Below, piece after piece: positions 22,488-26,116 of a DNA stretch of 64,000 nucleotides. Every line of letters begins with the position of its first letter. Within the stretch, counting starts at the first letter, position 1. Below the pieces are notes generated by a model. It worked only from the letters and a program-made list of their open reading frames with translations. It made no database searches and was not told where the DNA came from. This DNA comes from Blastocatellia bacterium. GTDB taxonomy: Bacteria; Acidobacteriota; Blastocatellia; UBA7656. The stretch is from assembly GCA_963765495.1 (NCBI GenBank), contig CAVXWP010000001.1, forward strand, positions 928,001 through 992,000. The letters run 5' to 3'. The translations under genes and the position numbers were made by a program.

Positions 22488-23864
22488 ATGGCAAAATCCA
22501 AAGGCCCGAAAACTGTTTATGTATGCCGTCAGTGCGGCTCTCAACAGCCAAAATGGATGGGCAAATGCCCCGATTGCGGCGAGTGGAACGGACTGGTCGA
22601 AGAACGCTCCACGCCCTCACGACCCGAGACCGGGCGCGGCGGGTTGTTTCGCATGCGCGAGGTTGTCCCTCTTGCCTACCAGGACATAGAGAGCCAGGAC
22701 GATTCGCGTCAGCCCTCCGGCATAACCGAGTTCGACCGTGTGCTGGGCGGCGGCATCGTGCCCGGTTCGCTCGTCCTGATTGGCGGGGAGCCGGGTTGCG
22801 GAAAATCGACCCTTCTCACACAGGTTTCAAGCAAGCTCACCGAAACCTGGGGCAAAGTCCTTTATGTGTCGGGCGAGGAGAGCGAGCGCCAGATAAAGCT
22901 CAGAGGCGAGCGGCTGGGCATCAACCCGCAACACCTTTACCTGCTGCCCGAAACATGCCTGGAACGCATCTTTGAAGAGATAGACCGGCTCGACCCGCAG
23001 GCCATCGTAGTCGATTCCGTGCAGACGGTCTTTTCCATGAATCTGGAATCTGCGCCCGGCTCCGTTTCGCAGGTGCGCGAGGTGGCCGGGCAATTCCTGA
23101 TGCTCGCCAAGAACCGCGCCATCCCGGTATTTCTGATCGGGCACGTCACAAAGGAAGGAACGATTGCGGGGCCGAAGGCGCTCGAACACATAGTCGATAC
23201 GGTGCTCTATTTCGAAGGCGAGCGCCATCACAATCACCGCATCATCCGGGCGGTCAAAAACCGATTCGGCGCGGCAAACGAACTTGGGGTCTTCGAGATG
23301 ACCGGCCACGGCCTTGAGCCTGTTCCAAACCCGTCGGGCCTTTTCTTAAATGAGCGTCCGCTCGGGGTTTCAGGCTCGATTGTGACCGCCTCGATGGAAG
23401 GGACCCGGCCTCTGCTTGTCGAATTGCAGGCGCTCGTCACCGAAAATAAATACGGCACGGGACGGCGAATGACTCAGGGCGTAGACGCAAACCGCGTGGC
23501 GCTTTTGATGGCGATGCTCGAAAAACGGGTGGGCATGAACCTGCTGGGTGATGACGTATTTGTAAACGTAGCGGGTGGAATGACGATAGATGAACCGGCG
23601 GCTGACCTCGGCATAGTGGTCGCGATAGCTTCGAGTTATCGCAATCTGGCCGTAGACGAGCGCGCCGCCGTCTTTGGCGAAGTGGGGCTTGCGGGCGAAG
23701 TGCGCGCGACCTCGCAGGCATCGGTTCGGGTGAGAGAAGCCTATGCTATGGGCTTTCGTCGATGCATAATCCCGCAGGGAAACCTGGTCGGGCTTGAATA
23801 TGACGACGGAATAGAGGTGATCGGCATACGCAACGTCGCCGATGCTCTCGATGCAGTATTCTGA
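22488..23864 (+). CDS. radA: DNA repair protein RadA/Sms
   Basis: C4 zinc finger, GEPGCGKST, KNRFG motif, Lon-like C-terminus. Confidence 0.97.
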   Translation: MAKSKGPKTVYVCRQCGSQQPKWMGKCPDCGEWNGLVEERSTPSRPETGRGGLFRMREVVPLAYQDIESQDDSRQPSGITEFDRVLGGGIVPGSLVLIGGEPGCGKSTLLTQVSSKLTETWGKVLYVSGEESERQIKLRGERLGINPQHLYLLPETCLERIFEEIDRLDPQAIVVDSVQTVFSMNLESAPGSVSQVREVAGQFLMLAKNRAIPVFLIGHVTKEGTIAGPKALEHIVDTVLYFEGERHHNHRIIRAVKNRFGAANELGVFEMTGHGLEPVPNPSGLFLNERPLGVSGSIVTASMEGTRPLLVELQALVTENKYGTGRRMTQGVDANRVALLMAMLEKRVGMNLLGDDVFVNVAGGMTIDEPAADLGIVVAIASSYRNLAVDERAAVFGEVGLAGEVRATSQASVRVREAYAMGFRRCIIPQGNLVGLEYDDGIEVIGIRNVADALDAVF

Positions 23865-24300
23865 TTTTAGATTTTGGATTTTGGATTTTGGATTCTCACT
23901 TTAGGTAGCGCTATGACTGAACAGGAATTCAAAGACCGCACGAAAGCGTTAGCACTGAGAGTCGTAAGGCTGATAAATGCCTTACCAAGAAACCAAGCGG
24001 CAGAAGTCATTGGAAAGCAGTTGCTTCGTTCCGCCACATCGGTTGGGGCAAATTATCGTGCAGCTTGCCGAGGGAAATCTGCTGCTGATGTAATTAGCAA
24101 ACTCTGTATCGTTGAAGAAGAAGCAGATGAATCTCTATATTGGATGGAACTTCTGATTGAGGCAGAAATTATTCCCAGAACTAAACTTGTGAATTTAATG
24201 TCAGAGACCAATGAGATAATTGCTATGGTTGTTTCGTCAATTAAGACTCTTCGTTCGAATCAACTGCGAAATCTAAAATCTAAAATCTAAAATCCAAAAT
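23863..24300. mobile_element. Four-helix-bundle cassette bounded by inverted ATTTT(A/G)G heptamer arrays
   Basis: gattttagattttggattttggattttggatt (23863-23894) and aatctaaaatctaaaatctaaaatccaaaat (24270-24300) enclose an AT-rich ORF; mobility is inferred. Confidence 0.6.
23913..24290 (+). CDS. Four helix bundle protein (TIGR02436 / 23S rRNA IVP / Avd-like superfamily)
   Basis: KQLLRSATSVGANYRAACR.KS..D...KL.IVEEEADES.YW.ELL. Confidence 0.9.
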   Translation: MTEQEFKDRTKALALRVVRLINALPRNQAAEVIGKQLLRSATSVGANYRAACRGKSAADVISKLCIVEEEADESLYWMELLIEAEIIPRTKLVNLMSETNEIIAMVVSSIKTLRSNQLRNLKSKI

Positions 24301-24301
24301 A

Positions 24302-24436
24302 CCAAAGGGGATGACGCAGCCCCCGTTGCCTCATCCCCTTCGGCTATTGTTTTGCTTTGTCTGTCGCTTCTCTCAGTTTTGCGATGGCCGACGCAGCCCC
24401 CGTTGCCCCGACCACCGCGTAACTTTTAAGCTACGC
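24302..24436 (-). ncRNA. Candidate sigma54-dependent sRNA of about 135 nt with three stem-loops
   Basis: SL1 24436-24417, SL2 24416-24383, A-rich linker, SL3 24340-24305 followed by U-rich sequence. SL2 and SL3 share GGCAACGGGGGCUGCG. G-U pairs in SL1 and SL2 favour the minus strand. Confidence 0.65.
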
Positions 24437-24447
24437 ATATAGGTTTG

Positions 24448-24462
24448 GCAATGCGCGTGCCA
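24448..24462 (-). promoter_or_regulatory. Sigma54 (-24/-12) promoter
   Basis: Minus strand TGGCACGCGCATTGC matches TGGCACG-N4-TTGC exactly. Confidence 0.75.
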
Positions 24463-24546
24463 TACGGTCATGACCCGCGCGGGTAGCCGTAAATGCTGTA
24501 TTTGAAGAAAAACGCCCGCAAGCTATTTGCCTCCGGTAACAAAACT

Positions 24547-24565
24547 TGTCAGCCGAATGGTGACA
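24547..24565. promoter_or_regulatory. Possible upstream activator (enhancer-binding protein) site
   Basis: TGTCA-N9-TGACA inverted repeat about 110-130 nt upstream of the predicted sigma54 start. Confidence 0.4.
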
Positions 24566-24613
24566 TATCGCGTGAGGGGGCCGATTGGCGCACGATGCGC
24601 TATCGCACGGCGC

Positions 24614-24750
24614 GGGGCCGGGGGGCGGGGGCCGGTAGATTGTGGCTTGTACGAATCTGATGCCTGTTGCCGGGGTCATGATGGTGCAGTTCGATTTAGA
24701 CCGATAAGTAGCAGGGTAAACCGGCCCCTGACCCCCGGCCCCCGGCCCCT
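24614..24750. repeat. Family D element, copy 2
   Basis: ggggccggggggcgggggccggt ... accggcccctgacccccggcccccggcccct around a spacer of about 80 nt. Confidence 0.78.
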
Positions 24751-25081
24751 ACTTTTGGGTAGCAAATCTGTTCAATTCAGTTATAATGTGTGCCGGTTAG
24801 GGGCCTCTCTCTGACCTGACTGGCAGCCAAGGCGATTTTGCGGGCCGGAGCCAGGAATGTATTCGCTCATACTTACCTGAAAACCGCGCCCCTGTAAGCT
24901 CGAAACCGGTCATATCTTCATTCGGGATTCGGGCAGTATCTTTTTTTTATTTGAGCACGATGGCTGAAAGTCATATTTGCGGTCAGGTGACCGCAACCGA
25001 TCTTTAACAATTCAGCTTAACTATTCGCAGTGTCGTATTGCAGGAACGGCTAAAGCGATAGGTAAGACGTGCGGAGGTCAT

Positions 25082-26116
25082 ATGAGATTCGACGTTACTA
25101 TAATTCGTATCGTCTTCATCGCAGCGCTCGTGAGTGCAGGCTATTTGTTAAGGCCCATCTACGGCAATCCTAAGCTTTCATCCGTAGTAGGCATAATCGT
25201 TGCCGCCTCAATAATCTTCTTCGAAACCCGCATACGCAAGGCCACTCTTAAGACTCTTATCGGCGGCGCGGTCGGGTCAATACTTGGGATCACTGGCGCT
25301 ACTTTGATTGGTTGGATCATATCGGCACAGCAGGGAATACCGGAAGAATTCAAATCCTTTGTCACGCTCACTTTGATGTTGTTTATGGGGTATGTGGGAT
25401 TAATCGTAGGTGCAGTCAAGGGGGATTATATTGATCTGGCAGCATTGGGTGGAATACTGGTAGAGAAAGGCGCGACTAAATCACATCCTCTTATCCTCGA
25501 CACTTCGGTGATCATAGATGGACGTGTGGCCGACATTGCCGAGACGGGATTTCTGGCAGGCACTCTGGTTATTCCTCAGTTTGTATTGCGCGAGCTTCAG
25601 CAGATAGCCGACAGCGCAGATTCGATAAAACGTAATCGGGGCCGTCGCGGGCTCGATATCCTTCAGCGCCTTCAAAAGAAGAAGGGCAGCTACGAGATCG
25701 TCATCAGCGAGGCCGATTTCCCCGATGTGCGCGAGGTGGACCACAAACTCATAGAGCTTGCCCGCCAGCTTGAAGGCAAGATCGTAACAAACGATTTCAA
25801 TCTAAATAAAGTCGCTCAACTGCGTGGCGTATCCGTACTCAACATCAACGAACTGGCCAACGCTCTCAAACCCGTGGTTCTGCCCGGAGAGATCATGCGC
25901 GTCTTTGTGCTCAAAGAGGGGAAAGAGTACAACCAGGGCGTCGCCTATCTTGATGACGGCACAATGGTAGTCGTAGACAACGCTCGCCGCATGATAGGCA
26001 AGAACGTGGACGTTTCGGTGACATCCGTATTGCAGACGACGGCCGGAAAGATGATCTTTGGCCGCTTCAGTGAGGACGGGCGCGCAGCCGCCCCGCGTCA
26101 TTCGGCCTCGCAGTGA
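25082..26116 (+). CDS. Membrane-anchored PIN/TRAM-domain protein (YacL-like)
   Basis: N-terminal TM helices, LDTSVIIDGR, TNDFNLNKVA, YLDDGTMVVV, QTTAGKMIF; radA-yacL-ispD-ispF synteny. Confidence 0.9.
   Translation: MRFDVTIIRIVFIAALVSAGYLLRPIYGNPKLSSVVGIIVAASIIFFETRIRKATLKTLIGGAVGSILGITGATLIGWIISAQQGIPEEFKSFVTLTLMLFMGYVGLIVGAVKGDYIDLAALGGILVEKGATKSHPLILDTSVIIDGRVADIAETGFLAGTLVIPQFVLRELQQIADSADSIKRNRGRRGLDILQRLQKKKGSYEIVISEADFPDVREVDHKLIELARQLEGKIVTNDFNLNKVAQLRGVSVLNINELANALKPVVLPGEIMRVFVLKEGKEYNQGVAYLDDGTMVVVDNARRMIGKNVDVSVTSVLQTTAGKMIFGRFSEDGRAAAPRHSASQ

Follow-up and report, generated by a model that had tools for sequence, protein, structure and literature searches.

Several groups of small regulatory RNAs (sRNAs) in Bacteria depend on sigma-54 for transcription or carry one motif in several hairpins. 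Qrr1-5 of Vibrio are multi-copy, base-pairing sRNAs driven by sigma-54 together with LuxO. In Pseudomonas, NrsZ (activator NtrC) is built of repeated stem-loops, and CrcZ/CrcY (activator CbrB) contain repeated A-rich motifs that sequester Hfq/Crc. The CsrB/RsmX/RsmY/RsmZ RNAs are sponges for CsrA/RsmA with A-N-GGA motifs in their hairpin loops, and the loops of 6C RNA and RsaE/RoxS are C-rich and pair with G-rich ribosome-binding sites. The activator site of GlmY/GlmZ is of the TGTC...GACA type. Control of these two RNAs by sigma-54 and GlrR and the binding of RapZ have been described (PMC3045617, PMC4152352, PMC7073468), and another case of an activator controlling an sRNA was reported from Desulfovibrio (Rajeev et al., 2011, PMC3333781). 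Candidate non-coding RNAs of Acidobacteria include Acido-1 and Acido-Lenti-1 (RF01686, RF01687; Weinberg et al., 2010, PMC2864571). Here, we analyze a locus in a window of 64,000 nucleotides (the whole stretch of DNA under study) from a Blastocatellia bacterium with a genome of 7.3 Mb in 17 contigs (97.9% complete). Judged from its sequence and conservation, the minus strand of this locus very probably encodes a real, independently transcribed sigma-54-dependent sRNA that carries the same G-rich hairpin loop twice.

The predicted sRNA gene is conserved, has a length of about 141 nt and extends from window position 24436 to about 24296 (both ends predicted). It is one of six paralogues in the genome and is called type A here. 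We aligned 27 type-A sequences from relatives and analyzed them with RNAalifold and by counting pairs. An initial annotation of the region, made from the letters alone, had pointed to an exact sigma-54 -24/-12 match on the minus strand, and the box (TGGCACGCGCATTGC, 24462-24448) is indeed found there and in all of these relatives, with the invariant form TGGCAC-N5-TTGC. Taken alone, the box is unremarkable: 53 of 100 shuffled sequences match TGGCACG-N4-TTGCW with at most one mismatch. It stands above chance because of its presence in 27 of 27 relatives, its fixed spacing of 11 nt and its genome-wide linkage to a hairpin module. In every one of the 27 relatives the conserved 5' motif begins exactly 11 nt past TTGC; the 8 nt that follow TTGCCAA are variable in the alignment, and conservation restarts at GCGTAGCT. 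In the window, G24436 lies 12 nt past the C of TTGC. No sigma-70-like promoter was predicted in 24150-25000. The elements of the locus are listed here from the upstream sites to the 3' end.

24561-24565, minus strand: left half TGTCA of the palindrome TGTCA-N9-TGACA (24565-24547); 25 of 27 type-A relatives have GTCA-N8-11-TGAC.
24537-24551, minus strand: core TGACAAGTTTTGTTA of a candidate enhancer (upstream activating sequence, UAS), an inverted repeat TGAC-N7-GT(C/T)A found in 26 of 27 type-A relatives.
24471-24505, minus strand: conserved stretch rich in A/T, then the palindrome ACCCGCGCGGGT (24484-24473; ACCC-N4-GGGT), between the UAS and the promoter, seen in the alignment of 27.
24447-24462, minus strand: sigma-54 type -24/-12 promoter TGGCACGCGCATTGCC; TGGCA-N6-TTGC is kept in 27 of 27 relatives.
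24296-24436, minus strand: predicted sRNA of type A; match of the covariance model at C1:952296-952436 in the window's own genome, with 161.9 bits.
24417-24436, minus strand: 5' segment GCGUAGCUUAAAAGUUACGC, which forms hairpin 1 or, via CGUAGCUU, the 5' strand of helix P1, according to pairing in relatives.
24381-24418, minus strand: hairpin module 1 (SL2) with a lower stem, a G·G mismatch, the stem GCA/UGC and the loop ACGGGGGC (24403-24396); double changes in 12 of 14 pairs.
24359-24377, minus strand: linker ACUGAGAGAAGCGACAGAC, near-invariant in the alignment; with AAGCGAC it supplies the 3' strand of P1; candidate seed.
24345-24358, minus strand: A-rich tract AAAGCAAAACAAUA ahead of the terminator hairpin, unpaired in the predicted fold; possible Hfq site.
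24301-24344, minus strand: hairpin module 2 (SL3), at the same time the predicted intrinsic terminator stem, with the loop ACGGGGGC at 24326-24319; double changes in 14 of 15 pairs.
24296-24300, minus strand: U-run AUUUU past the terminator stem; T-rich tails are conserved in relatives.

The stretch of 147 nt from 24436 to 24290 folds at -66.4 kcal/mol (z = -6.68), and not one of 200 shuffled sequences was as stable. In the alignment, 97.8% of the cells are paired, compared with 33-63% in slid controls. Compensatory changes were found in 27 of 35 pairs, values that none of 500 shuffles reached, and in the two G-loop hairpins, for which the initial annotation had suggested a covariation check, they affect 26 of 29 pairs. 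G-U pairs are frequent and non-standard pairs rare, so only the minus strand fits as the RNA strand. SL2, the A-rich linker and SL3 with U-rich sequence behind it, as described from the letters alone, are all read on this strand, and a terminator-like site was also predicted on it inside SL3. The hairpin proposed to start at G24436 fared less well. Its sequence is present (hairpin 1, GCGUAGCU-UAAA-AGUUACGC, 24436-24417), but only 87.7% of it is paired in relatives, by eye it is broken in several of them, and there is a rival helix, P1. In the RNAalifold structure, P1 pairs the 5' sequence CGUAGCUU with AAGCGAC-G of the linker (98.8% paired). P1 is nearly unvarying within type A and covaries between paralogue types (GUAGCUCC with GGAGCUAC; UGAGCUUC with GAAGCUCA), and this compensation between types supports it. 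On these comparisons P1, which joins the 5' end to the linker and closes hairpin 2, appears at least as likely as hairpin 1, and the two may alternate.

The most characteristic part of the RNA is the top of the two hairpins. As noted in the initial annotation, SL2 and SL3 share the same 16 nt (GGCAACGGGGGCTGCG), which occur exactly twice in the 64-kb window (24407-24392 and 24330-24315, both minus strand); 0 of 100 shuffles gave two or more copies. We searched the genome for hairpins in which the loop A-N-GGGGG-C sits on a 3-bp stem and, beyond a single skipped position, on a lower stem of 4 bp or more. This search found 12 modules in 7.3 Mb. A TGGCA-N6-TTGC box precedes 11 of them at a distance of 58-255 nt, and these 11 belong to six loci. 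With each of six control loop motifs, the genome yielded 0-1 modules. A covariance model built from type A independently recovered exactly the same six loci.

The geometry of the module was derived from 101 distinct loci with 174 modules in total. All 174 loops have A at their first and C at their eighth position, and the second is variable (C 113, U 35, A 25, G 1). The position below the 3-bp stem is a purine-purine mismatch in 167 of 174 modules (G·G 154, G·A 11, A·A 2), and the 3-bp stem itself occurs in 21 different forms. All loops read A-N-GGGGG-C, and GGA was found in 0 of 174. For part of this set, the retrieval pattern itself prescribed the first loop; among the 66 RNAs retrieved by the linker only, A and C were again present in 120 of 120 modules and G·G in 110 of 120. 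Two modules are found in 73 of the 101 RNAs and one in the other 28. The loop is also the sole RNA element that is common to all six paralogue types. The fixed geometry, the free second base, the freely covarying stems and the twin arrangement point to recognition by a protein, and we regard this role of the loops, as opposed to one as seeds for base pairing, as moderately probable.

A single sRNA locus had been described for the window; the reading as an sRNA is supported, but the locus is one of six in the genome. Type A is the window locus, type B has one hairpin only, a long terminator, the twin form recurs in types C and D, and type E is about 330 nt long and contains the linker. All types begin about 11 nt past TTGC with (G/A)CG(U)AGCU, and A-rich linkers occur in every paralogue. 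The paralogues lie in unrelated contexts in which promoter, module and terminator are kept; within a type, gene order is conserved and most genomes have one copy, and nothing points to mobility. A second same-sense copy of a linker 25-mer is located on contig 15 behind another sigma-54 box. This is type E (C15:33106-33440, plus strand), which has its own box, two modules with the loops AUGGGGGC and AAGGGGGC, and the same linker ACUGAGAGAAGCGACAGACAGAC. Genes in the same direction follow the terminators of types C and D at a distance of at least 100 nt, and read-through into them is possible.

Two arrangements of single types were observed in addition. Type D is followed, after about 550 nt and in the same direction, by a sigma-70 gene (regions 1.2, 2, 3, 4; C7:734999-737239, locus L144), with a small open reading frame (ORF) in between; this arrangement was found in 6 of 13 relatives' loci tested. 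From gene order, a link between the sigma-54 sRNA and the gene of the primary sigma factor is possible. A hairpin with the loop ACGGGGGG at the ribosome-binding site (RBS) of this sigma-70 gene was dropped from consideration, being unconserved in the six relatives' loci checked; among the relatives' loci checked at this site, only L135 also has ACGGGGG. Moreover, tandem duplicates of type A, about 500 nt apart, occur in three genomes of one genus (G448:C303:16842/17350, G449:C339:9269/9725, G454:C10:462797/463331).

The distribution of the family was analyzed in three ways. With 24580-24280 as BLAST query, all 24 sampled genomes of the same family, which cover 19 other genera, were found to have the locus, with 73-87% identity for most loci, and many matches start exactly at the TGGCAC box and stop just past the terminator. 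No homologue was found by BLAST in five sister-family genomes or in the other families sampled, where the lone match is to a heptamer repeat beyond the RNA. The covariance model matched in 24 of 24 sampled family genomes and in the window's own genome, with 2-7 matches per genome; in 96 genomes of other families of Blastocatellia there were just two matches, both borderline (E 0.006-0.009). Finally, the pattern of a box followed after 40-58 nt by ANGGGGGC had 132 matches in 52 of 53 family genomes and in 20 of 20 genera, compared with one match for the reversed control. The arrangement of promoter and motif, expected by the initial annotation to recur in related genomes, is thus conserved within the family. 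Elsewhere in the phylum the pattern gave 23 matches in 22 of 398 genomes, barely above the reversed control (13); this tally includes G185, a genome flagged as unpublished with a single match, on which no claim rests. The linker 19-mer is present in 68 stretches of the genome collection, most of them titled Blastocatellia and a few belonging to metagenome bins labelled otherwise. Among the genomes searched, the sRNA family is confined to one family of the class Blastocatellia (Acidobacteriota).

We fetched eight of the pattern matches outside the family. Only in G231 does a hairpin with AUGGGGGC as its apical loop follow a sigma-54 box; this locus (L137, G231:C37, another acidobacterial family) is without the G·G mismatch, and a weaker second copy is found in L136. 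Both may be distant analogues outside the family. G126 and G314 were rejected as members, as the G-run lies in a stem.

Transcription of the six genes appears to be controlled in common. The palindrome TGTCA-N9-TGACA, which the initial annotation had placed at enhancer distance, does exist and is kept in most type-A relatives, but the site common to five of the six paralogues, TGAC-N7-GTCA (24551-24537), overlaps only its right half. In 26 of 27 type-A relatives, TGAC-N7-GT(C/T)A lies 87-114 nt upstream of the box, mostly at 87-89 nt. The genome contains 122 relaxed sigma-54-like boxes, and 7 of them have T(G/T/A)AC-N7-GT(C/T/A)A within 220 nt upstream, with about 1.7 expected by chance. As five of these seven boxes are sRNA loci and the distances of the site cluster among relatives, one activator seems to drive the sRNA set, which seems to make up most of its regulon. 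The genome encodes sigma-54 (rpoN; Sigma54_DBD match at C12:139348-139821, E = 3.9e-60), and about 30 strong Sigma54_activat matches correspond to about 30 genes for enhancer-binding activators. Elements similar to the ACCC-N4-GGGT palindrome (ACCC-N4/5-GGGT) are also located ahead of the paralogues on contigs C7 and C9, with a strict regular expression matching a minority of loci only. Our guess is that the A/T-rich stretch and the palindrome are the site of a bending protein or of a second regulator.

The genes around the sRNA are all encoded on the plus strand: radA (22488-23864), a gene of the 23S-rRNA-intervening-sequence protein family (23874-24290) and a PIN-TRAM gene (24977-26116), followed by ispD and ispF. 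The sRNA is oriented against radA and the PIN-TRAM gene. It points against both neighbouring genes and is thus not the leader of either, and a reading as a cis-acting leader was rejected at the window locus, where the next downstream gene is convergent. Synteny is broad, with radA and/or the PIN-TRAM gene flanking the sRNA in 18 of 27 loci. The 23S-rRNA-intervening-sequence protein gene (PF05635) between radA and the sRNA is found in the window's own genome only (1 of 27 loci) and, with heptamer repeats at its borders, looks like a recent insertion. Directly past the sRNA terminator, about 3.5 tandem copies of the heptamer GATTTTA (24268-24294) overlap the stop codon of the convergent gene; this repeat has many short BLAST matches throughout related genomes. 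Another hairpin-forming repeat of heptamer units is located at 24605-24750, upstream of the sRNA promoter. On the minus strand it consists of GGGGCCG-type units at about 24750-24711 and a C-rich arm at about 24634-24605, the junctions of which hold GCCCCCG. This sequence is complementary to the core of the sRNA loop, which may be a coincidence.

Based on these findings, we propose the following mechanism. Sigma-54 RNA polymerase would bind TGGCAC-N5-TTGC, and one dedicated enhancer-binding protein would bind TGAC-N7-GT(C/T)A about 85 nt upstream and activate the promoter; its regulon would consist mainly of these sRNA genes, similar to LuxO and Qrr. The RNA would begin at G24436 and end at the intrinsic terminator formed by SL3. 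The twin modules would be the handle by which an RNA-binding protein, probably a dimer, holds the RNA; this protein could be a titrated regulator, or a stability or adaptor factor. This role is suggested by the module geometry, the twin arrangement and the absence of the module elsewhere in the genome. The single-stranded linker would be the seed for base pairing with mRNAs, partly masked by its pairing with the 5' end, and the sRNA would act as a regulator in trans. We lean slightly towards the linker as a seed because it is near-invariant in type A, single-stranded or only partly paired, and common to the scaffolds of types A and E. The whole picture, with protein-binding loops and a linker seed together, is tentative and falls somewhat short of an even chance. 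A further step, in which the A-N-GGGGG-C hairpin with its G·G mismatch is the site of a new RNA-binding regulator and the six sRNAs are its decoys or clients, is speculative and rather unlikely. If true, Acidobacteria would have a global switch at the post-transcriptional level that parallels Csr/Rsm or RapZ-GlmY/Z, made of non-homologous parts and operated by a single dedicated enhancer-binding protein.

A number of results weigh against this proposal. Regarding the loops, the 97.9%-complete genome has no match to CsrA (PF02599) at E <= 0.1, in a search whose control found the proteins of E. coli, B. subtilis and T. maritima, and no candidate partner protein emerged. Outside the sRNA loci, the genome holds only one weak module. 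The remaining tests at translation starts used crude gene calls in one genome and are therefore weak. In them, hairpin loops with ANGGGGG were not enriched at translation starts (7, compared with 9 inside coding sequence and 3 upstream). C-rich complementary sites, with which the initial annotation had suggested predicting targets, were not enriched either: GCCCCC occurs 20 times in -30..-1, within the range of 15-34 of five controls of the same composition. For the linker, a scan of duplex energies over 5901 start regions stayed within the range of six shuffled linkers, and a scan of the whole genome for the complement of the linker 11-mer gave noise only. The two top matches of the linker were rejected as targets, having many G-U pairs and lying probably inside coding sequence. 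In addition, the linker is common to types A and E only and absent from the other paralogues, and its invariance may be partly due to helix P1. With respect to control, only 3 of 97 loci include an activator gene, and in the window's own genome no paralogue has one as its neighbour; the assignment of an activator by gene adjacency was dropped. Finally, contigs from one soil run (labelled metatranscriptomic, probably DNA) of roughly 90%-identical relatives cover 24296-24425 and continue into the promoter, so they are uninformative on expression.

Other explanations account for part of the data. The RNA could be a pure protein sponge, with twin loops that titrate a dimeric RNA-binding regulator by the logic of Csr/Rsm or GlmY and a linker that serves folding (P1) or stability only. 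The loop as the only element common to all six types, the two modules in most RNAs and the resemblance of A, any base and a G-run to the A-N-GGA sites of CsrA agree with such a function, as do the covarying helix between the linker and the 5' end and the target scans of the linker, which gave nothing above shuffles. The missing CsrA gene and partner protein count against it, however; weaker module-like sites are not enriched in mRNA leaders, two sites per RNA are few, and the invariance of the 19-mer exceeds the need of a helix of 6-8 bp and is kept in type E despite a different 5' end. We judge a pure sponge unlikely. An Hfq-assisted base-pairing sRNA, with the G-rich loops as seeds for C- or pyrimidine-rich (GCCCCC-like) targets, would mirror the twin C-rich loops of 6C RNA or RsaE. 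An Hfq gene is present (PF17209 match at C12:114058-114231, E = 3.5e-26), every paralogue ends in a terminator U-tail and has A-rich tracts, the predicted fold leaves the invariant 6-7 nt of the loop accessible, and multi-copy base-pairing sRNAs under sigma-54 are known from Qrr (PMC10162802). Hfq, A-rich tracts and U-tails are compatible with the protein handle and with the linker seed alike. The GCCCCC counts do not favour loop seeds, and a fixed 3-bp stem with a purine-purine mismatch and a variable second loop base would be superfluous for a seed; this explanation, too, is improbable in our view.

The locus could also act at the level of DNA or in cis, as a bidirectional terminator or insulator between radA and PIN-TRAM-ispDF, an antisense promoter into radA, a dispersed repeat or an ORF of 15 codons. 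Indeed, 6-10 nt separate SL3 from the stop codon of the convergent gene, termination by SL3 on both strands is conceivable, and hairpin-forming repeats such as the arrays at about 24605-24750 exist in the genome. Nevertheless, the paralogues keep promoter, module and terminator in unrelated contexts, the types are syntenic and mostly single-copy without signs of mobility, the frequent G-U pairs fit a minus-strand RNA only, and a terminator alone needs no sigma-54 box at a fixed distance. The ATG of the 15-codon ORF, whose translation the initial annotation had named as a possible explanation of the locus, is present in 20 of 27 relatives but missing in 7, the position of the stop is variable, and the changes in SL3 track base pairing and not codons; the small-protein reading was thus rejected. 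A DNA-level or cis function as a whole appears very improbable. In our judgement, the core reading of the initial annotation, a sigma-54-driven sRNA outside the known families in which a loop motif is duplicated, is supported by the sequence comparisons and passes the computational tests it had proposed, such as the Rfam search and the check for covariation.

Acidobacteria are among the most abundant soil bacteria, and the sRNA family fills a gap in this poorly studied major phylum. In full-text searches of the literature we found no acidobacterial sigma-54 sRNA, nor any regulatory sRNA with a defined promoter in the phylum, and the searched passages of a 2026 preprint on non-coding sequence space mention neither Acidobacteria nor sigma-54. 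The family offers five or six co-regulated sRNA genes per genome with a promoter type that needs a signal-activated ATPase, and a hairpin module of about 30 nt that is defined sharply enough to be a direct bait for its partner. It is an entry point into acidobacterial post-transcriptional control, as signal, activator and loop partner are now testable. Furthermore, the covariance model and the promoter-loop pattern can be used to annotate the family in metagenomes and metatranscriptomes from soil.

Compared with known systems, the family stands apart by sequence and structure. With Rfam 15, the whole window gave 0 matches at gathering score, and at E <= 10 the region 24200-24700 gave two weak unrelated matches, both outside the RNA. 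This result covers the models of Qrr, CsrB/Rsm, GlmY/GlmZ, CrcZ, 6C, Acido-1 and Acido-Lenti-1, in line with the initial annotation, which had recognized no known family. The six genes resemble Vibrio Qrr1-5 in the presence of several paralogues of about 100-140 nt per genome, each with its own sigma-54 promoter, a common activator site and an intrinsic terminator, in an Hfq-containing genome, and in an activator regulon that seemingly consists mostly of sRNA genes. In contrast to Qrr, they belong to another phylum, do not match in sequence or structure and have no adjacent activator gene, and what all paralogues have in common is a hairpin loop of fixed geometry and not a single-stranded seed. 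GlmY/GlmZ of Enterobacteriaceae are likewise homologous sigma-54 sRNAs with an inverted-repeat activator site, and their shared hairpin, a protein handle, and their seed, present in some members only, correspond to the roles proposed here for module and linker. There are two of them instead of six, and the repeated loop motif is without counterpart in GlmY/Z.

A purine-rich motif repeated in hairpin loops is shared with CsrB/RsmX/RsmY/RsmZ, where it reads A-N-GGA and here A-N-GGGGG-C. Unlike in Csr/Rsm, GGGGG never gives way to GGA, each RNA has one or two sites and a sigma-54 promoter, and no CsrA gene was found. 6C RNA of Actinobacteria and RsaE/RoxS of Firmicutes also have two hairpins with the same homopolymer-rich loop motif and are conserved throughout their taxa, whereas the family described here has G-rich loops and a predicted sigma-54 promoter. 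The Pseudomonas RNAs NrsZ and CrcZ/CrcY are, in a similar way, sigma-54-dependent sRNAs of repeated modules, but their motifs are unrelated and they have single or few genes per genome. Acido-1 and Acido-Lenti-1 are set apart by their Rfam models, neither of which matches the window. Taken together, this is a previously undescribed sRNA family of a known kind, the activator-controlled, multi-copy sigma-54 sRNAs, with a new hairpin motif: it resembles Qrr or GlmY/GlmZ in its regulation and Csr/Rsm or 6C in its repeated loops, and it is a member of none of them.

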